NCBI GenBank assembly: GCA_963731035.1
Contig: CAVSUY010000022.1
Location: 4,887 to 68,886, forward strand
DNA: 64,000 nucleotides
Origin: an uncultured Gammaproteobacteria bacterium
GTDB taxonomy: Bacteria > Pseudomonadota > Gammaproteobacteria > Arenicellales > JAANXG01
Direction: 5' to 3'
The notes under the pieces were generated by a model that searched no databases, was not told the origin of the DNA, and saw only the letters and a list, made by a program, of their open reading frames with translations. The stretch's first letter is position 1. Every line of letters starts with the position of its first letter. Below, piece by piece: positions 1-46,154 of the stretch. The position numbers were made by a program, and so were the translations under genes.

Positions 1-98
1 CCGGATTGCGTATCGATCCGCGAACCCCCGTTCCCGACTGGTACGGCGAGTCGATGGATGATTCGATGGCGGTGGAGGGATTGTTGCAGCGGGAATAG
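1..98 (+). CDS. 3' end of a DUF222/HNH endonuclease paralogue (runs off left edge)
   Basis: Reads GLRIDPRTPVPDWYGESMDDSMAVEGLLQRE*. This closely matches the C-terminus of the HNH gene at 7181-8493 (GLRIDPQTPIPAWDGEPMDDSMAVEGLLHWD*). Confidence 0.7.
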   Translation, partial: GLRIDPRTPVPDWYGESMDDSMAVEGLLQRE

Positions 99-161
99 GC
101 TCAAGCGCCTGTGTGGAGCGTGCCCACTGCACCGTCTGTCCCGCCGCCCAGGAAAGAGATT

Positions 162-181
162 CGGTATCCTGTCCCCGGAAC
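162..181. repeat. REP family 1 unit (cggtatcctgtccccggaac)
   Basis: Same ~20-mer as at 5564-5583 and 5662-5681, and as the units flanking the RAYT gene at 46.1-46.9 kb. Sits just 3' of the 185-661 stop codon. Confidence 0.7.
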
Positions 182-184
182 TCG

Positions 185-661
185 CTACGCGGCGGGCCGT
201 CCCGTGAACTCGATCTCGCCTCCAGGCAGCATGTAGAGCACCAGCGAGCGGCCTCCCTTCACCGTGGGAAAGTGGTCCGATCCCGCTTCGAAGACGCACC
301 AGCCGCGTGGATGACCATTGAACCGCGCGTCCTCGTCCACCGGCATCACCATGCAGATCTCGCCGTTGGGATGCCGATGATGGGGGCCGACAATGTTCTC
401 CAGGTCAACCACGTCGACACTCAGACCATGGGTCTCACGGGCAGGCTCGATGACACGGCCGAATCGCCGTCCCTGCTCGCCCTGAGCGCACATCCAGCCC
501 GCGGAGATGGCCGCGTGGCAAGCTTCTTCGATGCCACGGAAGATTTCCCCATCCTGAGGAAACTGGGAGTTCAGTAGCTGTGCCAGGCTTTGATCCACCG
601 GCTTGTCCGCGACCGCGTTCAGCACGGGTTCGAGCAGGGGTTGAAATTCCTGGACGTTCAT
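185..661 (-). CDS. cupin-like hypothetical protein (possibly DUF4863-type)
   Basis: 158-aa ORF with an ATG start. His-rich motif GPHHRHPNGE typical of cupin metal sites. Family name is from memory only. Confidence 0.65.
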   Translation of the reverse strand: MNVQEFQPLLEPVLNAVADKPVDQSLAQLLNSQFPQDGEIFRGIEEACHAAISAGWMCAQGEQGRRFGRVIEPARETHGLSVDVVDLENIVGPHHRHPNGEICMVMPVDEDARFNGHPRGWCVFEAGSDHFPTVKGGRSLVLYMLPGGEIEFTGRPAA

Positions 662-760
662 AGGGCAGCGTCACCTCCGGTGCTATGCCATAGTGATTGC
701 AGTCTCCGTAAAGTACCAGCATTCTGGTCCGAATCAAAAAAACAGCAAGAAAACAAGGAC

Positions 761-848
761 AGACCACGGTTCCGTCCACGACTACGTCGGTGTATGCGCT
801 CAATCTGGCGGTAAGCATCGAATATTAGCAACAAATGCTCTCTGACCC
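761..848 (-). repeat. junction module A (28-nt core at 821-848 plus ~60-nt arm shared with module C)
   Basis: Minus-strand core GGGTCAGAGAGCATTTGTTGCTAATATT starts ~20 nt after the K+ channel stop. The arm aligns with 4683-4742. Confidence 0.8.
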
Positions 849-866
849 TGTTTTTCTACTGTTTTT

Positions 867-2576
867 CTAAGCCGAATCATGCGGCAACACTGGATACACT
901 TCGAAATAGCTTGCAAGCGCCTGTTCACTGCCGCAGACGTAGAGGACGTCGCCTTCGGCGATGGTGAAGTCCTCTTCAAACTCCACGAACACCGCGGTGC
1001 CGCGCCCAACGGCGACAATCTGGCATCCGGTCTTTTCGCGCACGCCCGCCCGCCACGGATGGTTGCCTACAAGTCGATCGGCATCCGCGCTCACGACCCT
1101 GAGGCTCGGCTCGACACTGACGTAATCCTCACCCAGCAGATGGTATACGAGCAATCGCCCGGACACCTGCCCGACGGAAAGGGCAAAGTCGACGCCCAGG
1201 CGATGCAGCCGTTCTACACTCTGGTCGAGATTGACACGCGCATACAAAGGCACGTCGGGCGCGTAGTCGCGGAGTATGGCCGCGGCAAAAAGAGATTCGC
1301 TGTCATTGCCGATGGTAAGAATGACGGCACGGGCATTGCGAATGTCGGCGGTCTTCAGCGTCTGCTGGCGTAGCAGATTGCCCACGATGTCGACACCGTC
1401 TTCCGCCCTGTCATTGACGACAAGAACCTCTTCGCCGGCGTCGCGCAGCAATTCCGCAACCTTGGCGCCGACTTCGCCGTAACCCGCCACGACGAGAGGC
1501 CCATCGAGAGGCGTTGCCGTGGCAAGTTCGCCAAGTCGCGCGAGCGCGGGGTGGCTGCCAATGGCAATGAGAATAGAACGGGCATACAAACGCGTGTCGC
1601 CGTTCGGCTGATCGATGAGCTTCCCGTCGTTCCACAGACCAATCACCGTCGCGCCCATCGTTTCACGAATTCCGACTTCTTCCAGCGTGCGCCCCGCCAG
1701 ACGACTGTCGGCAGTGACGCGAAGCTGCGCCACCGCGATGTTGGCGCCGATTTGCTGCACGCCGCTGACACTGGGGTTTATCCGCTGGCTGGCGCGGGCG
1801 GCGAGTGCCGCAGCCAGTACATGCCGCGGCGTGAACACGACGTTCGCCCCAGCTTGAGTCATGGCGTGGCGGTGCAGCGGGTCCTCCGCGAGCGCAACCA
1901 CCTGCCCTTCGAAACCAACTTCGCGGGCGGCCATGGTCAGAATCGCGTTTTCGTCGTCGCTGCCATTGGCCACCAGCGCCTGGGCACCTGTGAGTTGACC
2001 GGCCTGGAAGCGATCTTCATTCAAGTCCATGAGTATTACTTTGTGACCGCGTTCCAACAAGCGCCGCGCCACGGGTTCTTCGGACTCGACGATCAGGTAC
2101 GGCCTATGGAAACTCCGCAGTTCTGCCACCAAGGAGGCAACCGGTGGCCCGTATTGGAATATCAGGATCTCCCCCTCGAGATGCGGCAAGGCCCGCGGCA
2201 CCCGGGCCTCGAACCGTTCCTCGAAGAAGGGCAGGACGTAAACAGGGAGGATCATGAAGATCAGGAACAGACCCGCGAACTGGACGAGGATGACGAACAG
2301 CACCATGCGCGGGTCCTGCCAATGCGCATCCTGGCCGTAACCGGTCGTGGTCAGGGTCTCCGCCGCCCATTCGAGACTTTCCCAGATGGTGCGGGCATGT
2401 CCCTCGAGATGGGCCATGCCCTCCATGTAGACAAAAGCGAATACCACGAGCGACAGCGGTACCATGGCGAGCAGCAATAACAACCGTTGTGTCGGACGAC
2501 GCATCGCACGGCCCCACGCCGGAATTGTTGGAATTGGGGTAAGTCTACCACCAAGCCGTGCAGCGCCCGGTGGCAC
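867..2576 (-). CDS. K+ channel with tandem RCK/TrkA-N domains
   Basis: Selectivity filter TTTGYGQ. GYGEVG Rossmann motif and TrkA-C-like tail. True start may be the internal Met at 2504 (MRRPTQRLLLLL). Confidence 0.85.
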   Translation of the reverse strand: MPPGAARLGGRLTPIPTIPAWGRAMRRPTQRLLLLLAMVPLSLVVFAFVYMEGMAHLEGHARTIWESLEWAAETLTTTGYGQDAHWQDPRMVLFVILVQFAGLFLIFMILPVYVLPFFEERFEARVPRALPHLEGEILIFQYGPPVASLVAELRSFHRPYLIVESEEPVARRLLERGHKVILMDLNEDRFQAGQLTGAQALVANGSDDENAILTMAAREVGFEGQVVALAEDPLHRHAMTQAGANVVFTPRHVLAAALAARASQRINPSVSGVQQIGANIAVAQLRVTADSRLAGRTLEEVGIRETMGATVIGLWNDGKLIDQPNGDTRLYARSILIAIGSHPALARLGELATATPLDGPLVVAGYGEVGAKVAELLRDAGEEVLVVNDRAEDGVDIVGNLLRQQTLKTADIRNARAVILTIGNDSESLFAAAILRDYAPDVPLYARVNLDQSVERLHRLGVDFALSVGQVSGRLLVYHLLGEDYVSVEPSLRVVSADADRLVGNHPWRAGVREKTGCQIVAVGRGTAVFVEFEEDFTIAEGDVLYVCGSEQALASYFEVYPVLPHDSA

Positions 2577-2750
2577 TTGCCGGGAGAGGATACGGGGAAC
2601 TCTCCGCCAGTAATTGTCACGACGCCGCTCGCTATCCCGAGCAAGCGATCCGGGGCCACCCTCGGCGATTTCGAGCCACCCGACTTTACGCAGGGATGCA
2701 CGAGGGGAAAATGGGAATGGACCTTCTTTGACTGCGGATCTTGTTCTCGA

Positions 2751-2778
2751 ATATCAGGAACAAATGCTCTCTGACCCG
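2751..2778 (-). repeat. junction core B
   Basis: Plus strand aatatcaggaacaaatgctctctgaccc. Lies in the divergent gap between the K+ channel and the JmjC-like gene. Confidence 0.8.
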
Positions 2779-2838
2779 GTTTTCACAAAATAACTTGGAA
2801 CACGGCTAAAATCGCCGCTGAAGACTGGTGGAATATCT

Positions 2839-4131
2839 ATGACCAAACAAAATCTGAAATTCCTGGACCAGCTGTTTCCCGAGTCTGGCGGAGAGGCGTT
2901 TATCAATGATTGGTGGCTCAAGAGATATACTCTCCAGCACGGTGAAGTGTCGCGCTTGCCATCTTGTTTGCAAGCTCCGGACGGAGCAGTTGCCGGTATA
3001 CATTGCCTTGAAAACTGGCGCAAAGGCGACCTTTTTGATGTCGCCGTGGTTGACGACATCGACTATACCCAATACACGGTTCGCGACTTGCCTCCGATGG
3101 CGTTATATCGAGTTGGCGCACCTGTAATGCTAAGTAACCCTCATTATCGCAACAATGAACTTGCCGATTGGGTGACCGGAGTCAGCAGTGAACTCGGTAT
3201 CGCCAACGAATTTGTGACAGTTAATGCCTGGTTCGCGCGAAAGTCCTACGGACTAGGCATGCACTACGACCCAGGTGAAGTCATCCTGATTCAACTGGTT
3301 GGCAACAAACGAATGCAAATTTGTACTAATCAATTCACGACGATGCCGGATACACAATATGAGCTCTGCAAGCCCTGCGAGCAGAGCGAGTTGCCGCTCT
3401 TTGCCAATGGGTTTCCAGAGGGTGAACTGGAAGGCACGGAGGAAATAGAGCTGTACCCCGGGTCCGTACTGGCCATGCCGCGCGGCACTTGGCATAACTC
3501 TCTGGCGATGGATTCAGAATCGATTGCCCTCGCTCTGTTCTTTCGCACGCCGACAGTCGTAAGCCTTGTAATTTCATACTTGCGGGAATTCTTACGGCAG
3601 GATCCACTCTGGCGTACGCCCTTGTTCGGCCTCAAACTGGAAGGTGACAACAGTAAAGATATCCAAGGAGCAATGGACACTATATCAACCAGTTTGCAAA
3701 CTCTTGACAAGTATATCCATGCCATTCACCCGGAGCAGGTGATCGCTCATGCAGAACCGGTGATCAGCCGTATTCATCGACTGAAACAGGCGCCCTATTC
3801 GCTTCAGCGGCTACCTGAAGCCAGTTTATCGATCAAGGCAACGAACAGCGACGCCTGTCAGATAGTCATCCACGCTCGACTGAACATGCAACAGACCAAA
3901 ACCAGCGAGATGGAACTGGATAGCAGCGTAGTCGGAGCACTGGAATGGATATCCGAACATCCAGCGCGATTTACAATAAAGGAAATTGCTTCAGCGTGCC
4001 CGGAATTACCTTTGGATCATATCGAAGGTTTGATTGACGTACTTCTGGAAACAAACTATTTGGCACTTCTGCCTTTCCCATCAATCCAACCCAATGACGG
4101 TTTCTCGAGTTCAGTTGGGGAGCAAAACTGA
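2839..4131 (+). CDS. JmjC/cupin-4-like putative 2OG-Fe(II) oxygenase
   Basis: 430-aa ORF with lower GC than background. HxD...H pattern (GMHYDPGEVILIQLVGNKR ... PRGTWHNS). Confidence 0.7.
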   Translation: MTKQNLKFLDQLFPESGGEAFINDWWLKRYTLQHGEVSRLPSCLQAPDGAVAGIHCLENWRKGDLFDVAVVDDIDYTQYTVRDLPPMALYRVGAPVMLSNPHYRNNELADWVTGVSSELGIANEFVTVNAWFARKSYGLGMHYDPGEVILIQLVGNKRMQICTNQFTTMPDTQYELCKPCEQSELPLFANGFPEGELEGTEEIELYPGSVLAMPRGTWHNSLAMDSESIALALFFRTPTVVSLVISYLREFLRQDPLWRTPLFGLKLEGDNSKDIQGAMDTISTSLQTLDKYIHAIHPEQVIAHAEPVISRIHRLKQAPYSLQRLPEASLSIKATNSDACQIVIHARLNMQQTKTSEMELDSSVVGALEWISEHPARFTIKEIASACPELPLDHIEGLIDVLLETNYLALLPFPSIQPNDGFSSSVGEQN

Positions 4132-4596
4132 ATCAATTCCCGATTGATCCCATTCCTCAAGACTTGCCATTTTCAATCCCAATAAGTCATACCGAACCAT
4201 GAGATAGCCGTCGGCTCTCCTTCTCAAGGCATAAGGGTGGCTGCAAATCAAGTCCTGCGCCATCAACCCTACGTGAGTTTTCTTCGTCGGATCGTTCTTA
4301 TATTGGAATCGATACAGCTGAATTCCATTTTCCGTAACGGATAAAGCCTCAATTTCAGTCTTCAGTCGGATGTCACTCGCGTTTCCGGCATTTCCGGCAT
4401 TCCCCGCGTTTCCAGCATTCCCGGCGTTTCCAGTCGAGTCAGAACTCTCGCTGGTTTGAGCATGGGCCGGGAGAATGACAGAGTCAATAACAGGTTTCTT
4501 CCACCCATTGGTTACTTGAGCAGTTGCCGTCATGACCAATGCACTACTTCCGGCCGTCCGCATCAAACGGCGGCGTTGCAATTGTTTTTTATTCAT
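4111..4596 (-). CDS. secreted protein: RR-containing signal, (GNA)6 linker, peptidase-S74 intramolecular-chaperone domain
   Basis: ATG at 4596 preceded by GGGGGA. Signal region QRRRLMRTAGSSALVMTATA...LPAHA. SDIRLKTEI...VGLMAQDL...MVRYDLL matches the S74 autocleaving chaperone motif. Confidence 0.8.
   Translation of the reverse strand: MNKKQLQRRRLMRTAGSSALVMTATAQVTNGWKKPVIDSVILPAHAQTSESSDSTGNAGNAGNAGNAGNAGNASDIRLKTEIEALSVTENGIQLYRFQYKNDPTKKTHVGLMAQDLICSHPYALRRRADGYLMVRYDLLGLKMASLEEWDQSGIDSVLLPN
4378..4431 (-). repeat. in-frame 9-bp tandem repeat x6 encoding (Gly-Asn-Ala)6
   Basis: Units cgcgtttcc/ggcatttcc/ggcattccc... read directly. Lies inside CDS 4111-4596. Confidence 0.9.
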
Positions 4597-4682
4597 CGCT
4601 ATATCCCCCACAATCTCAGTTTCTGGAACTGACGTTATAGAAGGTATGGCACCGCTGGTCAACCTTGGTAAAAAAACAGGTA

Positions 4683-4780
4683 CTGACCACGGTCCGTCCA
4701 CGACTACGCCAGTGTATGCGCTCATACTGGCGGTCAGCATCCAATATCAGAAACGATATGCTCTCTGACCCGGTTTCTGA
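4683..4780 (-). repeat. junction module C (core 4743-4771; 8-bp stem 4747-4754/4773-4780)
   Basis: Aligns with module A over ~90 nt. TCAGAAAC ... GTTTCTGA brackets the conserved tgctctctgaccc loop. Confidence 0.8.
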
Positions 4781-4820
4781 GCAGAAAGTGGATCTGTTCC
4801 CTCTCTCGCACGAATTGTGG

Positions 4821-5451
4821 TCAGGCATTCAGCCCCCATACGGTATCGAGAACTGTTCGCAGCGCCCTGGTACCGGACGAGGAAAAAAGCCACCCGAGGA
4901 TCCCGCAATTGATAACAACCGTCCCCCAGAACACGATCTGAAACGACCGCTTCCTGGACTTGTGACGAAGCAGCCTTTGCGCCGCCAACGCACCCGGCCA
5001 ACCGCCCACCAGGGCGAACAGGTGCAAGGTGCTCTCCTGGGTCCGCCAGCGATCATTCCTGGCGGCGGACTTGTCGAGCGCATAGGCGACAAATGCCACG
5101 ACGCTGGCGGTGCAGTACAGCCCAAGGACGGCAATCGGCAATTTGCCCGGCGAATACCGCCCCCGCCACGAATACCAGGAACCCGCCGGCCAGCACGAGC
5201 GGGATGCCACTGCGGCCGGATGATGCGTCCGACGGCAATCTCTCGCCAGCGAAAGCAACGCGCTCGGCCTGTGCCCGTCCCTTGGCGTCGGTCCGGAGCT
5301 CGTAGGTCACGACCTCGTCGCCGGCGGGTCTTCGCTGGCGGTTTGCAAACGACTTGATGTGAACGAAGACCTGCTGCCCACCGCCGTTGGGGGCGATGAA
5401 GCCAAAGCCCCTGTCGTCCTTCCAGCTTGTCATTCTGCCCTTGTGTCGCAT
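4821..5451 (-). pseudogene. cold-shock domain + DUF1294 membrane protein, frameshifted near 5145
   Basis: N-terminal frame reads MRHKGRMTSWKDDRGFGFI...VAGAVFAG. C-terminal frame reads KLPIAVLGLYC...DKSAARNDRWRTQESTLH. Span is 631 nt (3n+1), consistent with a 1-nt insertion at gggCaaa. Confidence 0.8.
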
Positions 5452-5563
5452 ACTCGCTCCTCCCGAAGGCTCTGGACGGACGCCGCGCCCGGCCTGACCT
5501 GATCCCAAGCTAAGGCCGACTAACCGAGTCTGCTACCGCAACCACAGGTTGCAACCTGGTGTT

Positions 5564-5604
5564 CGGTATACTGTCCCCGGAACACGAGACCGGGGACAGT
5601 ATAT
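5564..5604. repeat. REPIN (inverted doublet of REP family 1)
   Basis: cggTATACTGTCCCCGGaacacgagaCCGGGGACAGTATAt. A 14-nt perfect palindrome, caggttgcaacctg, lies at 5544-5557. Confidence 0.8.
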
Positions 5605-5661
5605 TGAGTTCCTTCTGCGGCAGCAGGACGGTTTGCAAGAAGCAAGTCGTCCCGACCAATC

Positions 5662-5681
5662 CGGTATACTGTCCCCAGAAC
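5662..5681. repeat. REP family 1 unit
   Basis: cggtatactgtccccagaac. Confidence 0.7.
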
Positions 5682-5685
5682 TACT

Positions 5686-5800
5686 CTTCCTCGCGCCGTG
5701 CTGCCGCCATCAGCCGCTTGCATCAATTGCTCTCCGAGGAGTCCTATGGCGCATGTCGTCGCTCGGAATCAAATATAAGGAACAAATGGTCCTCCGGGCC
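5686..5800 (-). repeat. junction module D (degenerate core plus leader and first ~13 codons shared with module F)
   Basis: Aligns with 9731-9844. Encodes M(M)QAADGGSTARG versus MRATDGSSTARG, then diverges into REP sequence. Confidence 0.75.
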
Positions 5801-5982
5801 ACGGAACAGTGATAGCCGCCTCGCCGCTCAACTCTGGCGGGGTGAAGATGTAGCAATCTTCCAAGTGGTTGGAAGGGCCAGGACTACTCCTTTCAACAGC
5901 TTGCGACGGCTTCGCCGAGTCATGCGAGTTGCTCCATCCTGCGTACTCATCTGGTTTCATCTGACGCCCGGCCTGATCTCTG

Positions 5983-6022
5983 AATATTGGGAACAAATGC
6001 TCTCTGACCCGGCTTTTGTTCC
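5983..6022 (-). repeat. junction core E with perfect 8-bp stem
   Basis: GGAACAAA (5990-5997) and TTTGTTCC (6015-6022) bracket the loop tgctctctgacccggct. Starts ~20 nt after the stop of ORF 6033-6254. Confidence 0.8.
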
Positions 6023-6032
6023 GGGAGGAGGG

Positions 6033-6254
6033 TCAATTCGAAGGGCCACAGGCGCCATCTTCGCAACTCCACGGTCCCGTCACGACCTGCCCGCCTCCCG
6101 GGGTAATGGTGCCGTCGGGAATCGAGACGGTGGCGAACAGGTTGTTGCAATCCAGACTGGTCGTGGTGTACGTGAGCGTCTCGCTCGAGCACTCGGTCGA
6201 TATGGTTATGGTATGAGTGTCAAAACCACGTCTCGCCTGAGTGGCGGGAAGCAC
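6033..6254 (-). CDS. small Thr/Cys-rich hypothetical protein (uncertain)
   Basis: 73-aa ORF. Overlaps the end of the nhaA fossil. No recognisable SD or family. Confidence 0.3.
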   Translation of the reverse strand: MLPATQARRGFDTHTITISTECSSETLTYTTTSLDCNNLFATVSIPDGTITPGGGQVVTGPWSCEDGACGPSN

Positions 6255-6904
6255 CAGTACTTAGCCTGGCTACCCACATGATTATGCCAACGAGTATGTA
6301 CGGGCTCTTCGATACATCATCGGCTCTATTGAGCACACCCAACACCGCCCCGCAAAGGACCGCTGCCCCACGCACTGGCAGAGATGATGGCCGTGTAGAA
6401 CAATGCAAGAATCAATATTGCACCAATGTCTTCCATATCGCCAGGGCAGATACTAATCTCTTGAGAGAAGTTTGCACACGACTACCCAACAATGGCAATA
6501 TACCTAACGCGAATGCGATATCCGTGGCAGCGGGAATTGCCCAACCCTGTGCGTCAGCGCATCACCGACGTTGATGACACGTAGATCCCCGCCGGGACAA
6601 GCATCCCCCCAAGAGCATCGATCCCTGGATGAATAATATTCTTTACGTCAGATAGCTCACCTGCTATGTGTTCCCGCTTCTACTCCAGACTGACACGGTC
6701 GAAAAAGACCGCCATGACGCGATCGTTAATCCAAAGCACCAGAGGCTTCGCGATTTCATCAGTCCCGATACGCACTTCCACGGCAGTCGACAGAAGCTGG
6801 CGATAATACGTGTCGAGGCGGGAATTGGCAGCGACCAGCGCCACTAGGGCGGCGAAGATCAGGATGATTCCGCCGGCGGACTCTTTCTTCAGGAATTCCG
6901 ACAT
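6220..6904 (-). pseudogene. nhaA: Na+/H+ antiporter NhaA fossil (N-terminal ~230 codons, stops and frameshifts, 3' truncated)
   Basis: MSEFLKKESAGGIILIFAALVALVAANS...LWINDRVMAVFF matches the NhaA N-terminus. Later frames give [13 protein letters not shown] and SPYILVGIIMWVA, interrupted by stops. Confidence 0.8.
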
Positions 6905-7142
6905 TATTTATCGATGTTCGCGCTTGCCGGGAACAGTATATCAACTTCGTCTGCTTCGCGACGGCCGCGATTCCGTATGCGGAACTCAACCCTATCCGCG
7001 CTCGACGCGCACCTTCTCGAGTCAAGAATCGGGTTCATGGTGCCTCCGGTTCTCGGAAAAGGATCCAACGCAAACTCTGCATTGATGTAGTTGGACATGT
7101 TCCTTTGCGCAAGTCCTTGGAAAGTAGACTCTTCAAATAAAA

Positions 7143-7162
7143 TACTGTACATTTGTACAGTA
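7143..7162 (+). promoter_or_regulatory. putative LexA (SOS) box
   Basis: TACTGTACATTTGTACAGTA fits CTGT-N8-ACAG and lies within a perfect 11+11 inverted repeat. Located 19 nt upstream of the HNH gene ATG. Confidence 0.6.
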
Positions 7163-7180
7163 TTCAAAAAGGATCCCACC

Positions 7181-8493
7181 ATGACGCACGCCGCGGCACT
7201 ACCCACCGATCACGAACGCAAACCGCTGCAAACCCTGGCCGACGAAATCACCGAGTTGTCCGCGCATATCGCCGCCGCCACCTATCGCTTCCTGATCCTG
7301 ATCCGCGAGTTCGACGAGCGCGAGGGCTGGGAAGGGCCGGGCCTCAAGTCCTGCGCCCATTGGCTCAACTGGCAATGCGGCATCGGCCTGGGCGCCGCCC
7401 GAGAGAAAGTCCGCGTCGCCCACGCCCTCACGGACCTGCCCCGGATCAGTGACGCGTTTCGCACCGGACGGATCAGCTTCTCCAAGGTCCGCGCCATGAC
7501 GCGCGTGGCGACGCCGGAGAACGAGGAGTATCTGCTCATGATCGCCGAGCACGGCACGGCCGCCCATGTCGAGCGCCTGGTCCGGGGCTACCGGAGCGTC
7601 AAGCGGACCGAGGCGCTGGAGGCGGAGAATCTTCGCCATGACCTGCGGGAGCTGTGCTGGTTCATCGACGACGACGGCAGCTACGTGCTCAAGGCCCGGC
7701 TGACCCCCGAGCAAGGAGCACGAGTCGTGCAGGCCCTGAATGCCGGCGATGGAAGCCCAATCGGATGGCGAGTCCGAGGAGCACAAAAACGTTTCCGCGG
7801 AAACGCCCATCGCCTCACGCCGCGCCGACGCCCTGGAACGCGTCGCCGAAGGATTCCTCGCCGGCGGAGACGCAGGCCAACACCGGCGGCGACCGCTGCA
7901 CCCTCCATATCCATACCGACATCGACACCCTGCGCGCCGACGGCGAAGGCGCGGAAGCCGAGCTGGCCTCAGGCGGACGCGTTTGTGCGGAAACGTCGAG
8001 ACGGCTCGCTTGCGATAGCGGCGTGGTCCGGTGGCTGGAGGCCGCCGACGGCACCACCCTGGACGTGGGCCGCCGCACCCGCAGTATTCCCCCTGCCCTG
8101 CGGCGGGCCCTGGCGCGCCGCGATCAGGGCTGCCGTTTCCCCGGCTGCACCAGCGAGCGCTTTGTCGACGCCCACCACATCCACCACTGGGCCGACGGCG
8201 GCGAAACCCGGCTCGACAACCTCGTGCTCCTATGTCGCCACCACCACCGCCTGGTGCACGAAGGCGGCTATGCGGTCAGGATGGACTCGGGCAGTGAGCC
8301 CATCTTCACCGACCAGGCCGGTGAAACCATCCCCACCGGACCCGATACACGTTTCCGCGGAAACGTCTTCGCGCTCACCACCCGCAATCGCCGAGCCGGG
8401 CTGCGCATCGACCCGCAAACCCCCATTCCCGCCTGGGATGGCGAGCCGATGGACGATTCGATGGCAGTGGAGGGGTTGCTGCACTGGGACTGA
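7181..8493 (+). pseudogene. DUF222 + HNH endonuclease with two frameshifts (near 7742 and 7870)
   Basis: Reading passes through three frames: MTHAAALPTD...QALNA, then AMEAQSDGE...VSAETP...RRADALERVAEGF, then NTGGDRCTLHIHTD...CRFPGC...HHIHHWADGG...LLCRHHHRLVHEGG. Confidence 0.85.
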
Positions 8494-8513
8494 GCTGGCG
8501 GTCCTGCAATTGA

Positions 8514-9233
8514 TCAGGTTTCCTTCATCCGAACATACAGCTGGCCCGCAGCGCTGCCGTCGCCGCTCCTCCGGTTGTCAACTTCCAGATACGCCTGATC
8601 ACGTACCAGGTCGCCAAGCTTCTTGTAACCAAAGTTGCGGGAGTCGAACGACGGATCGTTCTTGTTCACGAGGCTTCCAACCGTCCCAAGGTTTGCCCAC
8701 CCATCTTCCTGAGCAGTGGAGGAAATCGCCGAGGTAAGCAGCTCCCGCAGCTTGCTTTCGTCCGCCTTCCCGGGTTTGGTCTTCTTCTCCGACTCTCCGA
8801 GAATTTCGGTGAAGATGAACTTGTCGCACGCCGCCACGAAGGGTTTAGGAGTCTTCTTCTCCCCAAAGCCATAGACAGCCAGCCCGGCCTCGCGCATGCG
8901 TGTTGCAAGGCGAGTGAAATCGCTGTCGGACGAGACCAGACAGACCCCATCTATCTTCCCCCCATGGAGAAGATCCATGGCGTCGATGATCAGCGCCGAG
9001 TCCGTGGCATTCTTTCCGGTCGTGTACCGGAATTGCTGAATCGGTTGGACGGCATGAACATGCAGCACATCCTTCCAGCCATTCAGATTCGGCGTCGTCC
9101 AATCGCCGTACGCTCGTTTCACCGTCGCCGTTCCATACCTGGCGACTTCCCCGAGTATCTCCCCTATTGCCGATGCTTGCGCATTATCCGCGTCAAACAG
9201 TACGGCCAGGTTTGAGGTTTCTGAAGCACTCAT
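8514..9233 (-). CDS. NYN (LabA-like) nuclease domain + OST-HTH/LOTUS domain protein
   Basis: NLAVLFDADN...YGDW...LVSSDSDFTRLATRMREAG is NYN-like. C-terminal GWANLGTVGSLV...FGYKKLGDLV is LOTUS-like. Start taken at MSASETS. Confidence 0.85.
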   Translation of the reverse strand: MSASETSNLAVLFDADNAQASAIGEILGEVARYGTATVKRAYGDWTTPNLNGWKDVLHVHAVQPIQQFRYTTGKNATDSALIIDAMDLLHGGKIDGVCLVSSDSDFTRLATRMREAGLAVYGFGEKKTPKPFVAACDKFIFTEILGESEKKTKPGKADESKLRELLTSAISSTAQEDGWANLGTVGSLVNKNDPSFDSRNFGYKKLGDLVRDQAYLEVDNRRSGDGSAAGQLYVRMKET

Positions 9234-9323
9234 ACGAACGACCTCATGCCGATGGCTTTGATAGCCAGGTGCCTGTTCCTGCGACGGAACATCGTTCTGA
9301 TCCCATTTCCCCGCTGGCAATCT

Positions 9324-9768
9324 TTATTCATTGTGGGTCCCTATCCAAGGGATTGACGGATCTACGCCCAGAAAGGTCTTCGTTTCCGTGAGGCTCTGCT
9401 CTATGAGTCGACGAGATTCCTCGGATGCTTGCGTACCTGGGGAAACAGCCTCTGGAATATTCGCCTTCGCTTCCACCAGCAGTACCCGCCCGTCAGCAGT
9501 GCGACCAAGCGCATCCCACTGCGGCCCGCGATTCGGCCATCGCCAGCGCTCGATTCGGCAAAGTGATGCCAACCCGATCCAGGAAATCCTGATCTCCGTA
9601 CTCCGCATAATCATCCTCGACCAGGGGCGAGACCCATTCGATTTCGCTTGGTCCGAGTCGGCAGGCAGCGGATATCTCTCCGTTCAAGGTGTCCGGATGG
9701 TCGTTCACCGCCGCACGAATCCACCTGAGACTTCCTCTCGCTGTGCTGCTGCCATCAGTGGCTCGCAT
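9324..9768 (-). pseudogene. PD-(D/E)xK-like protein, frameshifted near 9540
   Basis: Frame 1 reads MRATDGSSTARG...DRVGITLPNRALA. Frame 2 reads WPNRGPQWDALGRTADGRVLLVEAKANIPE. Span is 445 nt (3n+1). Confidence 0.65.
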
Positions 9769-9844
9769 CGATCGCTCTCCGAGCAGCCCTATGACGCATG
9801 TCGTCGCTCAGAATCAAATATTAGGAACAAATGCTCTCTGACCC
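9731..9844 (-). repeat. junction module F (core 9817-9844 plus leader and first codons of the 9324-9768 gene)
   Basis: Aligns with module D. Core on the plus strand is aatattaggaacaaatgctctctgacccc. Confidence 0.8.
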
Positions 9845-10018
9845 CGTCCTTCTCTGGGCTTTTCGTTTTCAGCCATCTTGTGACTCCTGAAACGCCTAAA
9901 ACGCCTAGGTTCAGCGGCGTTTGAGGCGACGGCCGCTTTTGCGGTGGCAAAAATGGGCGGCGGCCCAAACGTCCGCTGCAACGATTTGTTGGGCGTCAGA
10001 TCCGCAGGGCTTAGGTTT

Positions 10019-11329
10019 TCATCTGAGTCGCGACGCTGATGGTCGGACTGAACAATCGATAACGCGGGTGGCGATTACATGCGCGGAGTTGTCCGGGTTT
10101 TTGGCCAACGTCTCGATGAATTCGCGTGTTCTTTCTAAGTCGTTTGATTTCGGTTCTGAAAAGTAGCGTCCCGCTTCATCCTTGAACCACATCAGGATGA
10201 AGATACCGTGCGAACATGGGATTGAGTCCATGTAGCGCGGGAGCTGGCGGGTGACTCCCGCTTTCACCTCTTTGTGGTGGGCCAGCTTAAATTCCGCCGC
10301 AACTGACACGAGTTCGGATTTGGTGTTTGTCGTGGAAAAGCGAAAGTCCAACGAGCCAGAGCCCTCGTAACTCTCCCTTATGACGTGAACACCAAATGGT
10401 TCCAAAGCCATTTGCAGAAAAACATGCAGAGTTGGCTGTATTTCTGTCTCGTTCTTGGGAATTCTCGGTATGTCTAGCTTTTCGCCGTCAACATCAATCG
10501 TCCGGGAGCCATCCCAGAAGGGTTCGACCAATCTACGTGTTTCAAAATGATGAACCAACACCTTGTCGATCGCGGATGTCACCAATGACTGCAACTCTGG
10601 TTCATTAGATGGAGGCGAAGAATGCTGAGCTTTGAGAGCTGCGAGGGCAACGGTAACGCTGTCACGGGCATCGCCTAGGTAGTATTCCTCCGTGGCGTTC
10701 TTGAAAGCGGCTGGTGTCGTAACCAAGCTGACAGTCCGGGCTAGAAGACGTTGCTCGGATTTAAGGCCGTGAGTTGTAACTAGAGCTGTGACCTCATCAG
10801 CCGATATGGGTCTGCCATTGTTGAGTCTAAGTTCCTTAATCGCTCGATTTGTTGCGGAAAGGGCGACAAGCTTTTCCGGCATTGGATCAGGGCCCAGGAT
10901 ATCCATACGCTCACGATCCTCATCAGTGATAGGCGTATCGGGTGCACGTATGGTGTCGCCATCAACGCGCACGGGAAAGCACGCCTCCACCGCGACGCAA
11001 GGGTAATGACCCCGGTTATCCAACAAATGGCGCGTCGGTACGAACGCCCTTCCTTTCTCGTCAGCAGCTAGAACGAGATCCTTCGAAGCTTGATATATGG
11101 GATCCTCGTCCTCGCTTCTTACAAGTAGGAAACGAATTCTCGCGTCACCTAGTCGAGTTTGTACCTGGCAGGTGCCCGGTTCAAAGCCTTCCGGAGTGAA
11201 AGGGGCCACAAACCATACGCACGACCCGATACTTGCAGGTTCAGCAGCAGCTACTTCGTCACGAGAGCCCTGAGTGAGATGCATCGACTGAATGTCGAAG
11301 GGAATATCAAAGCGGGACCGTGCCGACAT
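10019..11329 (-). CDS. hypothetical protein with C-terminal PD-(D/E)xK nuclease-like motifs
   Basis: 436-aa ORF with lower GC. Motif series ETEIQPTL ... GSLDF ... AAEFKL ... QLPRYM (E, D, ExK, QxxxY). N-terminal region unassigned. Confidence 0.75.
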   Translation of the reverse strand: MSARSRFDIPFDIQSMHLTQGSRDEVAAAEPASIGSCVWFVAPFTPEGFEPGTCQVQTRLGDARIRFLLVRSEDEDPIYQASKDLVLAADEKGRAFVPTRHLLDNRGHYPCVAVEACFPVRVDGDTIRAPDTPITDEDRERMDILGPDPMPEKLVALSATNRAIKELRLNNGRPISADEVTALVTTHGLKSEQRLLARTVSLVTTPAAFKNATEEYYLGDARDSVTVALAALKAQHSSPPSNEPELQSLVTSAIDKVLVHHFETRRLVEPFWDGSRTIDVDGEKLDIPRIPKNETEIQPTLHVFLQMALEPFGVHVIRESYEGSGSLDFRFSTTNTKSELVSVAAEFKLAHHKEVKAGVTRQLPRYMDSIPCSHGIFILMWFKDEAGRYFSEPKSNDLERTREFIETLAKNPDNSAHVIATRVIDCSVRPSASRLR

Positions 11330-11435
11330 CGCTACGCGCTCACTTCATTGACTCGGGGTCGGGCCGACGTCCAAGGATACCGATGAGTCACGCTTGAGGG
11401 CGACCGAGCGGAGCGGCAGCGAAGGGAGCGAGCGG

Positions 11436-11795
11436 TCAAGCGTCGGACTCCATCGCCCTTGTTGGGTTTCCACTGCTTCTTTCATCAAAGAGCGCCTGGA
11501 TCTCTGAAAAGGCAGACAATGCATTAATTGATCGCCGAAGAAATCTCTCCGCCTCTTCGTAATTCTGTGTCCGTATCTTATCGGAGGCTTCGCGCAGATT
11601 GTCCCTAACCGTATTAGCCCAAATAGCGTACCTACTAAAAGTGGCTCCACCCTCATCAGCCTGATTCAGGGCTGCACGGGCTAAACGAGGAAAGAGCGGA
11701 TCCACGCCGCCATCCGGAAATACTGTCGACACAACGATCTCTTCATCCGTGTCGTGTCGATCTAGGATTTCTTGTATTTGATTCTCTACATCCAT
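11436..11795 (-). CDS. hypothetical 119-aa protein upstream of the nuclease-like gene
   Basis: ATG-started ORF, same strand and lower GC. No family recognised. Confidence 0.55.
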   Translation of the reverse strand: MDVENQIQEILDRHDTDEEIVVSTVFPDGGVDPLFPRLARAALNQADEGGATFSRYAIWANTVRDNLREASDKIRTQNYEEAERFLRRSINALSAFSEIQALFDERSSGNPTRAMESDA

Positions 11796-11970
11796 AGCTC
11801 TCAGGAGACCCAGCAGTGAATTGGGCAGAGTTCGTAGATCCCGTAATAGGCAGAGTTCCTGACTCGGGTGCTAGCGAGATTCCGAGCGGGTCCGGTCGCG
11901 GCGCGGGTGCTGCGGGTCGTGGTTCGTGATCGAATGGAGAGGTCCTTGCGGTGTCAAGCTGTCCTCTGTG

Positions 11971-13098
11971 TTACGGGGCGATGAAATGTTTGCTGAGCTT
12001 CAGGCCTTGGCTTTGGTAGCTGGATTTCAGGTCCTGGCCGTAGACTTTGTGTGGGGGTTCGGCCAGGGGTTCGTAGATTAGGCGGCCTACTATTTGGCCG
12101 TGTTCTATTACGAAGGGGACTTCGAAGGATCTGACTTCGAGGACGGCTCTGGAGCCTTCGCCGCCGGCGGCGGCGTCGCCGAAGCCGGGGTCGAAGAAGC
12201 CGGCGTAGTGGACTCGGAATTCGCCGACGAGGGTGTCGTAGGCGATCATTTCGGCGGCGTAGTGGGTGGGGACGCGGACGGCTTCCTTGCTGGCGAGGAT
12301 GTAGAACTCGCCGGGGTCGAGGATGAGGCTGGGGCCGTTGCTGCGGTGGATGGGCTCCCAGAAGTCCTCGGCCTGGTAGTGGTTCTTCTTGTCCATGTCG
12401 ATGAGGCCGGCGTGGGACTTGGCGCGGTAGCCGATGAGGCCGGTATGCGGGTCGCCGGCGACGTCGACGGTGATGGGGACGCCGTTCTTGATGTCTTCCT
12501 GGGTCAGCTCGGCGTCGACGATCTTGAGCTCTTCCTGCAGTCGGATGTGCTCGGCGTCGGAGCGGGTGGCGATGCCGCGGCGCACGCGGAGCTGGTTGAG
12601 GCGCGAGCCGGCGCGGACCAGCACGCTGAAGGTGCGCGGGGCGATCTCGGCGTACAGGGGGCCGGCGTAGCCGGGCTTGACCTGGTCGAACTCGACGCCA
12701 TGGTCGGTGATGAGCCGGGTGAAGACGTCGAGGCGGCCGGTGGAGCTTTTCGGGTTGCCGATGGCGCTGTGGTCCGGGGGCAGGTTGACCGATTCCATGA
12801 GGGGCACGATGTAGACGCAGTCGCGCTCCAGCACGGCGCCGTTGGTGAGGTCGAACTCGTGCATGGTGAGGGCCTTGATCCGGTCCTGCACGGTGTTGTG
12901 CTTGCCCGGGAGGAAGCTGGCGCGGACGCGGTAGGCTTTGTGGCCGAGGCGCAGGTCCAGGCTGGCGGGTTGGATCTGGTCGTCGGCGATGGGGTCGGTG
13001 GCTTTGAGGGCGCCGGTGTGGATCAGGGCGACGATGGATTGGGACGGGAGGACGCCTTTGGGTTGGGGGTCCATTTTGGGGGCTGGGTGGTCCGTCAT
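11971..13098 (-). CDS. dcd: 2'-deoxycytidine 5'-triphosphate deaminase (long DCD family)
   Basis: 375 aa. IQPASLDLRLG... and the overall length match the long proteobacterial dCTP deaminase family. Several Arg/Pro-rich shadow ORFs overlap it. Confidence 0.8.
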   Translation of the reverse strand: MTDHPAPKMDPQPKGVLPSQSIVALIHTGALKATDPIADDQIQPASLDLRLGHKAYRVRASFLPGKHNTVQDRIKALTMHEFDLTNGAVLERDCVYIVPLMESVNLPPDHSAIGNPKSSTGRLDVFTRLITDHGVEFDQVKPGYAGPLYAEIAPRTFSVLVRAGSRLNQLRVRRGIATRSDAEHIRLQEELKIVDAELTQEDIKNGVPITVDVAGDPHTGLIGYRAKSHAGLIDMDKKNHYQAEDFWEPIHRSNGPSLILDPGEFYILASKEAVRVPTHYAAEMIAYDTLVGEFRVHYAGFFDPGFGDAAAGGEGSRAVLEVRSFEVPFVIEHGQIVGRLIYEPLAEPPHKVYGQDLKSSYQSQGLKLSKHFIAP

Positions 13099-33299: not shown

Positions 33300-36250
33300 G
33301 ACTGATGCCATCGCGGTATAGATCACGACTGTGGGGTCGCTCATCGCGTACAAGGGCTGATACTCCAGCCTGAAGAAAAGCTCTCTGGTGAGCGAAAGCC
33401 GGTATGTGCCCAGATACGGCTGTACGATCGCGAGCTGATCCACAGCATCCTTTCCGTGGACTTGGCGATGGGACTAGCACGTCTAGGTTGCAGGAGGCGA
33501 TGAGAACCGCTAAGGCGCACACGGCACCACTAGGCTCAATGGATGTGCTCTGGGAAAAGGCATTGCATCTTGTCCCAAGACAACCAATGAAGCGTAGACA
33601 GAACTACTGCAGCTGTACTCGGAGGGGTGATCCTCCGCAATACTGTCTTTGCTCGCCAGTACGAACTAGATGTCGACTAGATCGCTAGCAGGACTACCGT
33701 GAAAAGCGCGTCACTGCGAAAGCTGTTTATGACGGTTCTCGCAGCTAGGAGCTGAACCACTGTCGCGAGAATCAGAACTGGGACTAGGAAACGCTGGCAA
33801 AGCAGGACGACTACGGGAAACAGAAGGTAGAACTGCATCTCCAGTGACAGCGACTAGTGCCGAACAGGATGTTGCGGTACTCACTGTCGCTATACAACAG
33901 CTCAAAGGTATAGTTGGCGAAGTTGAGCAGGCGCTGGCACCGACGATCAGGTTGCTCTTGACTGTTCTCAACGCTCCGGTTTCATTGAACTGCGCCTAGC
34001 ACGAGACCTGCGATACCGTCTACGCTGCGCATGATGCGCTAGATGCGGCGGATCTAGAAGGCTGTGGCGTGTGGTAGAACTGTCTCTTGCTCGATGCGGT
34101 TTGAAGCTGCGAGAGCAAGTGCGTGCGATCTCGAAACTCGAGTGACTAAGAAAAGAGTGACGCTACTGGCGCTTGAACTAGTCGCTGAAAAACTACAGAG
34201 ACTCGGTCTTCTAGTGGAACTGTTTGAGCTTCAGTTGATAGATTATACTAGTACTATCGCGACGGTTAGGAGCACTTCGATGTCGTCAATCTGGGAAGTT
34301 GCGCTGCTTTTTTCAGAGGCGTACATGTCGGTTAGAGCGGCATGGATTGATCTCTTTGGTTGTGAACTATCTAAGCGAGTTCTCTGTATTATATATTCGA
34401 ACTGTGGAGCTAGCTGAGTTACTAGGGGTCGTTTATGTCGGATTATTGATCTTTTGATGAACGACAACGTTTCTTTGTCTATTTGCTTCGGAAAGCTCTG
34501 TGGTAGCGATGGTCTCGGCTCGGGCAGTCGAGACTGTGTGGTGTATTTATCTGAAAGCGCTGCGAGGACTGAGAAACACAGAGGTGGCATCGGATACAGA
34601 GTCGCGTAACGATGATGACTAGCGAGTGCTACGTCATCGCTTTCTCATCTCTCTCGGCTGGCGCGCTCGGTTAGCGCGCTGCTGCTGTGATTTTCACCGG
34701 CTACGACGTCTACGATGATTCGTACAAGACTGACACTTCGGGACGCTGATCGGATAGCTGAACGACTATTCGTTGATCGTGTGTGCTCTGAGCTTACAGC
34801 GCTTACTGTCTGATATTAACTGACTAAAGCGATAGCGAGATCGCTGCAATTATATCTCTCTGTTAGAGCGCTACGACACTGTTAGAAAGAACTATGACTG
34901 CTATAGAGAAATCGAGCTTGCTTCAGTGCTGTATACGTGGACAGCTACTATCTTTGCTTCTCTCGGTAAAGCTCGTAGAGCTATTTCTCAGCGCTGGGGT
35001 TTCGAATCTCACTGAAATCGGCGACAGTGTTTGCTGCGCGTGCTGGACTTCTGCTGATCGGGTGAGTGCTTTAGCTTTTGAGAAGTTTTGTACTGCTAGA
35101 AGATTGAAGAACTTAGAAGAATGCTGACAGAGCTATGATTCTGCTGCTAAAGCGAATTGATATGCATCAATTTTTCTATGTATTACTAAATATAAGAGCA
35201 ATTAAGTTAGATTAGATTGCTCTGCGACTTAGTCAGAGCTAAGAAACGATCTATTCTGAGAAACGATAGCAATTTCAATAAAGTGATATATGTGATAGAA
35301 ATCTTAGATCAGCTACATTTCTCTGCGATTTCGGAGTACTTTGCGAGCGACTCTATTGAACTACTGCAATTGCTGATAGAGCGCGTAGCGCTGATTCTGT
35401 CGATTAGTACTATGCTAGAGATCTACGCTGCGCTGAGAACAAACTCGCTATCTTAGTGTCTGTTGACTTGTGAGCTCTACTCGCATCTTCTGAGTAACAG
35501 CTGAATGCTGAGTATTAATTCGAAGTGCTGAGCGCTTTCTGCTTAACGCACCGCTTCTACGACGACGCTACTCTGTTCTTCTAGACCGACGCTCTCGATC
35601 TCATACTGCTGCGCATGTCTGAGAGCTAGCGAAAATAAAACGTTTATATGCTAAGTGCTATTAATAGCTGTAGATCTGAACTCAACTTCTTATTGCAACT
35701 AGCTAGCGAACACTACTTTCTTCTTCCTAGACTACTCTGCGATGTGTCTGCTCAAACAATCGCGGATTTCTTGATCCTAGCGTAGTGCTCATCGCGCTGA
35801 GCTGAGACGCTCATACAGAACTGATCTCTGCTGAAAATAAGTACAAATTAAACTCTTAGCGCTACACAGATCTACGCTCTTCGAATCTCCCACTCTCTAC
35901 TGAGACAGCTTGTGCGACTATAACTGAGAGAGCTTCGCAGAGTTTTCTAAAAATATTACAAAACTACGCTAACGACACGGACACCGATTACTCTCTGTGT
36001 CCGCTGCACGCGCTAACTGTTAGCGCGCTACTGAGAAACTCACACCGTAGCTACGCACTCTAGAGCTAGCTCTATCCGTTACTGCGCTATCTTGCTCATA
36101 GCTGCGACGCTGAGAAGACCGCTCTCTATTGCACTGAGCTGAGCTGACCCGAATACAGCTATACTTCGATCTCAAAGCTTCCTGCCGATATTGAACGCAC
36201 GATCGCTATTCGAACTGCCAAACTCACGGCCCGACTCAACAGTGAACCGA
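33300..36250. other. ORF-free, compositionally graded tract (GC minimum ~32% near 35.2 kb; CTAG-rich; GG/CC-poor)
   Basis: No ORF >117 aa in six frames, and all three stop codons occur in all frames. Dinucleotide and tetranucleotide hand counts are given in the findings. Confidence 0.8.
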
Positions 36251-45342: not shown

Positions 45343-46152
45343 CTACCAGATTACCTCGTCGGCCATCAGTGCCATGGCGCGGATCGGCTCATAGTCTTCA
45401 TCCTGAACCGGAGCCATTTTGAGCAAGCCATGCTCTTCCAGAATGCTCCGTCCCGGTTCGCCTTCGTGCATTCGCCAGAGAGCCTCACGAATTGCCTGAC
45501 GCAGTTCCGGCGGCACATCTTTATGGACCACCCACGGCGGTATGGGGCTCGGTCCCAGAACGTCAATGACTCGCAGCTGGGTCTTGAGCCGGGGCTGAAG
45601 GTCCATTTCGATTTCGAGGACGGTACTGTCAATCGCGCTTGCGTCAACGGCCCCGTCCAGGACCATCTCAAGGGCCCGGAGGTGGGAACCGGCTTCGATA
45701 ACACGGCCAAAGTAACCTTTGCTCTCGCCCAGGGCCGCCAGGTGGTACCGGGTAATATTGTATCCCGACTGGGAGCCGGTTTCGTTATAAGCCCACGACG
45801 CACCGCGTAAGTCGGTGAAGCAGCCATATTCCCTGTCACTGCGCACGACGACATCGGAGAAATAGACCGGTCGCTGCTGATAACGCGGGTGCTGCATGAC
45901 CGGCGCGGCCACCAGTTCGATGCAGGGAAACTTCCGGTCCACCCTACGCACATACGGCAATCCGCAAATCCAACCTAAGTGGACCTGTCCCGCGTCCAAC
46001 ATCCGTCCCCGCTCTTTCCACGGAATATCGTTGACGAACTCCGTCTCTACGCCCAAGTGATCACCAAGATAGCCGGTAACTGCCCGGCACATGGGAGCCG
46101 CGTTGTCCGACTGGATCGAGATGACCTTGAGAGTTCCGGGGACACAATACAT
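45343..46152 (-). CDS. PhnD-like substrate-binding-fold protein (no signal peptide)
   Basis: SQSGYNITRYHLA and an overall PhnD-like pattern. The annotated ATG lies inside a REP unit, so the true start may be internal. Confidence 0.7.
   Translation of the reverse strand: MYCVPGTLKVISIQSDNAAPMCRAVTGYLGDHLGVETEFVNDIPWKERGRMLDAGQVHLGWICGLPYVRRVDRKFPCIELVAAPVMQHPRYQQRPVYFSDVVVRSDREYGCFTDLRGASWAYNETGSQSGYNITRYHLAALGESKGYFGRVIEAGSHLRALEMVLDGAVDASAIDSTVLEIEMDLQPRLKTQLRVIDVLGPSPIPPWVVHKDVPPELRQAIREALWRMHEGEPGRSILEEHGLLKMAPVQDEDYEPIRAMALMADEVIW
46133..46150. repeat. REP family 1 unit flanking the RAYT (inverted relative to 46913-46930)
   Basis: gttccggggacacaatac. Confidence 0.8.
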
Positions 46153-46154
46153 AA

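Follow-up and report, generated by a model that had tools for sequence, protein, structure and literature searches.

A repeated core in a lower-GC island

The DNA considered here, a stretch of 64,000 nt (hereafter the window) from contig CAVSUY010000022.1 of an uncultured gammaproteobacterium of the Arenicellales (assembly GCA_963731035.1), contains a 28-nt core, GGGTCAGAGAGCATTTGTTCCTAATATT, that is repeated on the minus strand between positions 821 and 9844. The copies lie in a region of approximately 11 kb with a lower and uneven GC content (50–63%), an island whose genes include those for a PnbB-family protein, a TrkA-type K+ channel, a divergent JmjC protein, a peptidase S74 chaperone-domain protein, a frameshifted cold-shock/DUF1294 protein, an NhaA remnant, a DUF222/HNH protein (behind a perfect LexA box), an NYN/OST-HTH protein and a 436-aa protein that has no Pfam match. 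From about 11.9 kb onward the genes are of the housekeeping kind (dCTP deaminase, ribonucleotide reductase), and a scan of the window found no tRNA or tmRNA marking an integration site. We argue that the core is very probably one arm of an element of the repetitive extragenic palindromic (REP) or REPIN (REP doublet forming a hairpin) type, belonging to a family that we name REP1, and that the window copies are singlets of this family.

The window has five near-perfect copies of the core (A, B, C, E and F) and one partial copy (D), all on the minus strand; a search with the core pattern, allowing up to three mismatches, matched A, B, E and F. Copies A (821–848, GGGTCAGAGAGCATTTGTTGCTAATATT), B (2750–2777), E (5983–6010) and F (9817–9844, an exact match) carry at most one mismatch each, and C (4743–4771) has a 1-nt insertion. 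The invariant 12-mer GGTCAGAGAGCA, which C also carries, occurs exactly five times in the window, every time on the minus strand; the chance expectation for the core, from dinucleotide-preserving shuffles, is 0.00 matches, and neither strand of the other 54 kb holds a further copy. D (5772–5788, CATTTGTTCCTTATATT) is a fragment comprising the inner 17 nt of an arm followed by approximately 80 nt of F-type flank, and the bases preceding it ('GGCCCGGAGGACC') are part of an open reading frame (ORF) that is intact in the strain variant L014; the fragment and its flank have been joined into that ORF.

Four copies follow the stop codon of a minus-strand gene, at distances of 18 nt (A), 49 nt (C), 22 nt (E, behind a truncated 174-aa gene) and 174 nt (F), whereas B lies 61 nt upstream of the start of the divergent plus-strand JmjC gene and 174–243 nt upstream of the TrkA-type channel gene. 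The similarity of some copies extends beyond the core: A and its paralogue C have approximately 105 nt in common (86–88% identity), and D and F share 106 nt (87% identity). A preliminary description of this DNA had already recognized the confinement of the cores to the minus strand of this part of the window, their position behind four stop codons, the longer shared arms and the heterogeneous GC content and gene functions between copies, all of which we find as well; its coordinates hold for A, C, E and F, but B is shifted one base to the left and D, counted there as a degenerate copy, is only the fragment given above.

A dispersed family of inverted doublets

When one genome per species was scanned with a strict pattern (1–3 matches per representative genome), the core was found in Sedimenticola and in metagenome-assembled genomes (MAGs) of Thiohalomonadales, Ectothiorhodospiraceae and Arenicellales, nearly always as one half of an inverted doublet. 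It is present in at least 120 metagenome contigs, mostly from marine or estuarine sediment, and, with gammaproteobacterial MAGs included, in more than 130 other, unrelated contigs. Arms were tallied in the loci retrieved among the matches listed, so all such counts are lower bounds: these loci contain at least 349 arms, in 111 short doublets, 16 longer inverted pairs and 95 solo arms, some of the last being flanks of a transposase gene (see below). Most REP1 copies in the retrieved loci are inverted doublets able to form a hairpin, whereas those in the window are all singlets. Both in the window and in other contigs the arms are extragenic, lying between ORFs (called by a simple longest-ORF rule, such that counts of gene orientation are exploratory).

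The complete doublet is approximately 48 bp long and reads AAAACCG-GGTCAGAGAGCA-N7-CTAATATTAG-N7-TGCTCTCTGACC-CGGTTTT; the consensus arm is aaaAAnCnGGGTCAGAGAGCAATTnTTTCTAATATT. A complete REP1 element would accordingly be drawn as two inverted arms that abut at AATATT and fold into a hairpin of approximately 48–60 bp, with A- and T-rich outer flanks and a 7 × 7 mismatch bubble. The bubble appears to be a conserved feature of the hairpin, because the N7 blocks of paired arms differ more than random pairing predicts (identity of 3.66/7 observed against 4.00/7 by random pairing; only 3 of 97 doublets are perfect). All six window copies cease to match the family consensus exactly after ATATT, which is the doublet centre. 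They are also likely to be each other's closest relatives, since they share the rare variant GCATTTGTTC (consensus GCAATTGTTT), which occurs in 6 of 331 arms, four of the six being in the window.

A Y1 transposase between inverted REP1 arms

In at least 10 retrieved loci two inverted REP1 arms stand approximately 750–840 bp apart, and in at least nine of these (metagenome contigs with arms 766–841 bp apart) they enclose a single ORF of 232–238 aa, with further truncated cases at contig ends. The enclosed ORF contains the motifs MPRKPRFNLPGIPQHVIQRGNNREPCFF...NHVHLL...GTLWEGRYK...RYIELNPVRA and matches Pfam Y1_Tnp (E = 3e-15 and 4e-16); its top NCBIfam model is the REP-associated tyrosine transposase (RAYT), with a score of 67 bits, short of the curated 80-bit cutoff. 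The NHVH and RYIE-N-VRA motifs are invariant in the aligned RAYTs. A search of the Protein Data Bank with a single RAYT sequence gave no match, and a RAYT profile matched ISDra2 TnpA (2XM3, E = 2e-5) and E. coli TnpA-REP (4ER8, E = 1.4e-3).

The RAYT-flanking arms end at CTAATAT, the point at which the window copies also stop matching the consensus, and the short doublet can for this reason be described as two arms abutted at the common AATATT, equal to the RAYT element minus its interior. Beside RAYT-flanking arms in five loci (L033, L053, L123, L133 and L138) the outer end of the arm is partly duplicated in short direct copies whose end points vary (for example aaaaaacGGGGTCAGAGAG|gaaaaaacGGGGTCAGAGAGCAATTG). 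In another locus (L099:147–924) two inverted REP1-like arms, 751 bp apart, enclose small ORFs instead of a RAYT; one of these (83 aa) resembles an XRE-type helix-turn-helix protein by eye, and the unit would be a cargo-carrying, REP-bounded one.

The window encodes a RAYT-like Y1/HUH transposase of its own (219 aa, 46155–46814, minus strand), which is 36% identical to the REP1-flanked RAYTs (tblastn E = 4e-35), has NF047646 (REP-associated tyrosine transposase) as its top NCBIfam match at 67 bits (cutoff 80) and retains the HUH motif and the catalytic-Tyr region in the alignment. It is bordered by a different repeat, REP2 (TTCCGGGGACAswATAC), with one arm on its 3' side (46134–46150, plus strand, TTCCGGGGACACAATAC) and an inverted arm on its 5' side (46913–46929, minus strand), and 46134–46929 is a complete REP2–RAYT unit distinct from REP1. 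Close variants of REP2 (TTCCGGGGACAGTATAC) recur in the island, as a singlet immediately past the PnbB stop codon (164–180, minus strand) and as a cluster of three arms (5664–5680, minus strand; 5590–5606, plus strand; 5566–5582, minus strand) at the right-hand end of the spacer that follows E and varies among strains; a weaker variant lies at 6927–6943. No REP1-type RAYT is present in the 64-kb window or in the 10 kb to its left, which are supplied by the strain variant L012, and REP1 is an orphan within this range. In three other contigs (L060 at ~362, L069 at ~1370 and L081 at ~2324) a REP2-like CCGGGGACAGTA is followed directly by TGAACCTCCCCCAGTTTAACGGACAC-like sequence, which we take to resemble an IS3-family terminal inverted repeat and which for that reason suggests an insertion sequence (IS) inserting into REP2.

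Second arms and folding of the window copies

Traces of second arms beside the window singlets differ in clarity among the copies. Copy A is the left arm of a hairpin of approximately 125 nt that spans ~740–865 and has a degenerate right arm, GGTCTGTCCTTGTTTTCTTGCTGTTTT; its RNA fold (z = −3.6) and its left-arm/downstream duplex (z = −3.4; none of 300 shuffles did as well) both stand out, and the arm and right arm also follow TrkA in a 92%-identical relative (L142). A possible vestigial second arm, ATGACTCGGC, lies approximately 57 nt downstream of E (p = 0.017), and a weaker one is found at C (p = 0.07). At F, CGGGGTCAGA pairs with TTTGATTCTG over ten bases starting at the last bases of AATATT, and the four departures of the partner from perfect complementarity are all C-to-T, which makes four G–U pairs in RNA. 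Tested against shuffles, the arm/downstream duplex of B revealed no significant second arm, and most singlets fold no better than their shuffles (B, z = 0.2; E, 0.75; F, −0.76). At copy E and in the metagenome contig L107 (described below), the head of the arm recurs 10–45 nt downstream in a degenerate direct copy.

The preliminary description had also drawn attention to local hairpins in which the 3' flank pairs with the core and leaves GGGTCAGAGAGCA in the loop. Both of its 8-bp stems exist, each joining flank upstream of the core on the minus strand to the 3' part of the core, near E (GGAACAAA, 6022–6015, pairing with TTTGTTCC, 5997–5990) and near C (TCAGAAAC, 4780–4773, pairing with GTTTCTGA, 4754–4747); across 76 solo and 210 doublet arms, however, such a stem is not enriched over controls, and the pairing that recurs in the family is that of an arm with its inverted counterpart.

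Strain variation and the question of gene cassettes

A look-up with the PnbB protein retrieved six strain variants of the locus (L012–L017), in which copies A, B, C and E are kept at homologous junctions. Gene content around the cores varies among the strains, as the preliminary description had supposed. In L014 the NhaA gene is intact and its stop codon is accompanied by a REP1 arm of its own, four other strains are without the entire NhaA module, and in the window a 1-kb deletion fuses the NhaA remnant to the 3' part of the 174-aa gene (pseudogenes, 6033–6904). The left edge of the NhaA module falls at no arm and its right edge 35–50 nt past one; similarly, the hypervariable spacer between E and the cold-shock gene starts approximately 38 nt past E and ends at REP2. 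The cold-shock/DUF1294 gene itself (4821–5508) is split in the window into two overlapping ORFs and is intact, at 209 aa, in L012–L017. A more distant comparison comes from L107, a metagenome contig of 1.3 kb that is approximately 86% identical to the window: the homologous stretch, which takes in arm B and the conserved region downstream of it, runs precisely from the outer limit of B to the ATAT end of A, and the DNA outside these limits is different.

These comparisons bear on a reading in which the co-oriented arms would be working ends of the IS200/IS605 kind, such that a RAYT would excise and re-insert modules of a gene plus its arm as single-stranded circles and thereby build an array of accessory genes. 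An NhaA gene that carries its own arm in L014 and is missing from four other strains, homology breaks in L107 that fall exactly on the two arm boundaries just named, the inverted arms around non-RAYT cargo in L099, and solo arms that are mutually co-oriented in the window and in 6/6 multi-arm contigs and co-oriented with genes at 16:3 (see below) would all suit such modules. Were it true, this reading would describe a single-strand, HUH-enzyme counterpart of integron cassettes and would explain both the co-orientation and the changes of context at the arm edges of L107. We nevertheless consider it very unlikely. The edges of the NhaA module and the start of the spacer after E lie off the arms, D arose from segmental copying rather than cassette insertion, TrkA homologues at 80% and 65–68% identity occupy ordinary contexts without arms, and a REP1-type RAYT is lacking from the 64 kb and the 10 kb leftward. 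There is likewise no sign of a travelling TrkA cassette, and the 92% relative carries the copy A element. The breakpoints in L107, a contig of only 1.3 kb, would look identical if ordinary homologous recombination had taken place at the only shared repeats.

A second way to obtain co-oriented sites at gene 3' ends is a variant integron, in which the copies would be attC sites of an array that lacks an integrase. Two observations speak for this idea. The first is an attC-like hairpin just upstream of F (9890–10005, minus strand), a unique, imperfect structure of approximately 70 nt (DNA fold z = −3.6) between ...GCCCAAC... and ...GTTTTAGGC..., which stands right past the stop codon of the 436-aa gene and approximately 55 nt before F; its layout is attC-like by reading, and it has no relatives in the retrieved loci. 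The second is a doublet-carrying contig, L002 (Thiohalomonadaceae MAG), in which small co-oriented genes at 2440–5400 are separated by imperfect palindromes ending in GTTAGGC-like boxes, resembling a classical integron cassette array, and in which one REP1 doublet parts an attC-like hairpin from the start codon that comes next. The six copies and the family consensus, however, contain no RYYYAAC or GTTRRRY boxes (by reading, not by an attC covariance model), no IntI-like gene was found in the window or the loci (tblastn with an IntI1 query) and none was called in the 10 kb leftward, the indel edges lie off the sites, and the arms flank a Y1/HUH transposase instead. We therefore give this possibility next to no weight, in keeping with the view of the preliminary description that the copies do not fit attC.

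Orientation of solo arms

Solo arms in other contigs are biased relative to their flanking genes, with 16 co-oriented and 3 anti-oriented with both neighbours (13 vs 3 when counted by locus), and they lie a median of ~45 nt past the co-oriented stop codon. In contigs with at least two non-RAYT solo arms, the arms are mutually co-oriented in all six independent cases (6/6). Whole doublets show no orientation preference relative to genes (18:20), and their oriented insertion is accordingly rejected. Two routes by which doublets might yield such singlets found no support: faster decay of the gene-distal arm is rejected on the doublets, where the proximal arm is better preserved in 19 and the distal arm in 20 (54 vs 56 mismatches), and doublets lie nearer to the upstream stop than to the next start in 21/44 cases, which leaves unsupported the idea that deletions downstream are tolerated better. 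Since solo arms are biased while doublets show neither a preference nor asymmetric decay, the formation or retention of singlets appears to be directional, and this directionality may reflect strand-specific action of the RAYT, a role at the RNA level or selection.

REPs of E. coli are reported to act as transcript-end, stability or translation-coupled signals, and a comparable role is conceivable here: an arm transcribed in the sense direction after a stop codon could be a selected element of the 3' untranslated region (UTR), an explanation that is compatible with an origin as a REP. It would account for the co-orientation of singlets with genes (16:3, at a median of ~45 nt past the stop), for arms that remain near-identical though their partners are gone, and for a partner at F that differs by C-to-T changes alone, so that its G–U pairs persist in RNA. 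We regard such a function as unlikely on present evidence, given that there is no Rfam match, that B, E and F fold no better than shuffles, that the local stem is not enriched in the family and that B follows no co-oriented gene.

REP1 as a probable REP/REPIN–RAYT family

The architecture that defines REP/REPIN–RAYT systems is a short dispersed repeat that occurs in hairpin doublets and, inverted, around a Y1 transposase (PMC3116915, PMC5581495). The core has been named REP1 because hairpin-forming dispersed doublets and the inverted flanking of a Y1 transposase are what is found for it. REP singlets are described as remnants of REPINs that arise through decay, insertion into the doublet or internal deletion (Bertels & Rainey 2011, PMC3116915), and the window singlets fit these published routes. 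If the analogy with E. coli TnpA-REP and with IS608/ISDra2 applies, the RAYT would bind a complete doublet in its folded, single-stranded form, cut it and then copy or move it. The six window copies would be REPINs whose second arm was lost or replaced at the centre, among which A would retain a clear degenerate second arm and C, E and F weak traces, and D would be a fragment copied along with the flank of F. Most likely, the window singlets are now immobile remnants that lie in 3' untranslated or intergenic sequence within an island of lower GC content that varies among strains, where their main present effect would be to provide short identical repeats at which rearrangements occur.

Several observations weigh against this interpretation. 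Most described REPs are characterized by a GTAG or CGTC tag (PMC3733652), and neither tag is present in the consensus arm. A lone arm is no convincing palindrome: the best within-arm stem has a mean length of 4.6 bp, against 4.6 bp in a flank-swap control and 4.4 bp in a shuffle control (21% of the solo arms, compared with 16% and 13% in the respective controls, have a stem of at least 6 bp). The lack of both features makes REP1 atypical among described REPs. The distribution along the sequence covered is also unusual: six copies are crowded into 9 kb, and neither the remaining 54 kb nor the 10 kb leftward has any, which does not resemble the even scatter typical of REPINs. Neutral decay, moreover, fails to account for the 16:3 co-orientation of solo arms, because the doublets are balanced both in decay (19:20) and in orientation (18:20), and the binding and cleavage of REP1 by the RAYT are predicted only, from the analogy given above.

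Other classifications of the core were considered and discarded. It matches no Rfam family (in 1–12000 at E ≤ 1, or in the whole window at gathering scores); readings as a sigma-70, sigma-54 or extracytoplasmic function (ECF) promoter were set aside upon inspection, where the spacings do not fit, as were resemblances to dif/Xer sites and Tn3 inverted repeats. A literature search on the core sequence returned only unrelated eukaryotic primers.

The preliminary description had proposed a recombination, mobilization or RNA-processing signal marking the boundaries of a gene-cassette array at this locus. A link to mobilization by an HUH/Y1 enzyme is borne out by the RAYTs flanked by arms in nine contigs, and that description had itself put forward a RAYT as a protein to try. 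The notion of a locus-specific cassette boundary is not: the core is a dispersed REP/REPIN arm, the strain-specific indels mostly do not end at cores, and the 10 kb left of the window (L012), where that description had proposed to look for a recombinase, contain neither a recombinase nor a further core. Because it is dispersed in more than 130 unrelated contigs, the core is essentially what that description had contrasted with a cassette signal, an ordinary REP or miniature inverted-repeat transposable element (MITE). REP1 is hence new as a sequence family, the kind of selfish repeat that it represents is known, and it is no new gene-cassette system.

What formerly looked like a possible cassette system can now be annotated as a REP family with its transposase, and the sequence model (arm, doublet and RAYT) offers a means of masking or annotating these repeats in sediment Gammaproteobacteria. 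The absence of the GTAG tag, the directly abutting arms that resemble terminal inverted repeats and the position of the RAYT inside the doublet make REP1 a useful intermediate for understanding how IS200-like elements became REPIN–RAYT systems. Singlets co-oriented with genes and breakpoints at arm edges additionally bear on whether REP singlets do anything.

Other features of the window

The perfect LexA-type box (TACTGTACAAATGTACAGTA) occupies 7146–7165, just upstream of the DUF222/HNH gene (7183–8493, plus strand). The start of the window (1–110) carries the 3' end of another copy of this gene (81% identity over 101 nt). Each copy converges on minus-strand genes, and the two are also present in the strain variants. 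The S74-domain protein (4596–4111, minus strand) and an unrelated small ORF (40394–40065, minus strand) have in common the N-terminal sequence W(K/R)(K/R)P(V/I)I(D/E)SV.LPAHA(Q/R)(T/S)S after an Arg-rich leader, and a similar leader starts the ORF that follows E (5923–5829, minus strand), which is full length in L014. Within the S74-domain gene, 4378–4431 is a 9-bp tandem repeat of at least four GCATTTCCG-like units encoding a GNA run (GNAGNAGNAGNA). Farther to the right, approximately 2.6 kb (33500–36150) have a GC content of 42–49%, against ~63% around them, with almost no ORFs of at least 90 aa and no Rfam or tRNA match.

Comparison with known systems

The closest counterparts of REP1 are the GI–GIII REPINs of Pseudomonas fluorescens SBW25 and the REPs and bacterial interspersed mosaic elements (BIMEs) of E. 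coli with TnpA-REP/YafM. In these, as in REP1, a Y1/HUH gene is flanked by an inverted short repeat, the repeat is dispersed in intergenic DNA mostly as inverted hairpin doublets, singlets are broken doublets, and a genome can carry two or more repeat families, each served by a RAYT of its own. REP1 differs from them in lacking the GTAG/CGTC tag, in that its single arm is no GC-rich palindrome and in that its arms abut at AATATT with a 7 × 7 bubble; its RAYT is enclosed by two single arms, in the manner of an IS with terminal inverted repeats of approximately 35 nt, and not placed beside clusters of REPINs, and its window copies are all singlets clustered in one island.

With IS200/IS605 elements (IS608, ISDra2) REP1 shares the fold family of the transposase, as the match of the RAYT profile to 2XM3 indicates, and presumably the recognition of folded single-stranded ends; these elements, however, lack terminal inverted repeats, being bounded on the left and on the right by unlike hairpins of one strand, and they form no populations of miniature doublets. 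MITEs such as the Correia/NEMIS elements of Neisseria and the enterobacterial ERIC sequences are likewise small and intergenic, have inverted repeats at their ends, exist in long and short forms and are often transcribed together with the gene upstream, but no Y1/HUH transposase is associated with them. Integron attC sites, finally, are imperfect palindromes at the 3' ends of co-oriented genes that act as folded single strands; they differ in their conserved boxes, in being used by the tyrosine recombinase IntI and in a crossover at one end of the site, whereas the REP1 singlets end at the centre of the doublet.

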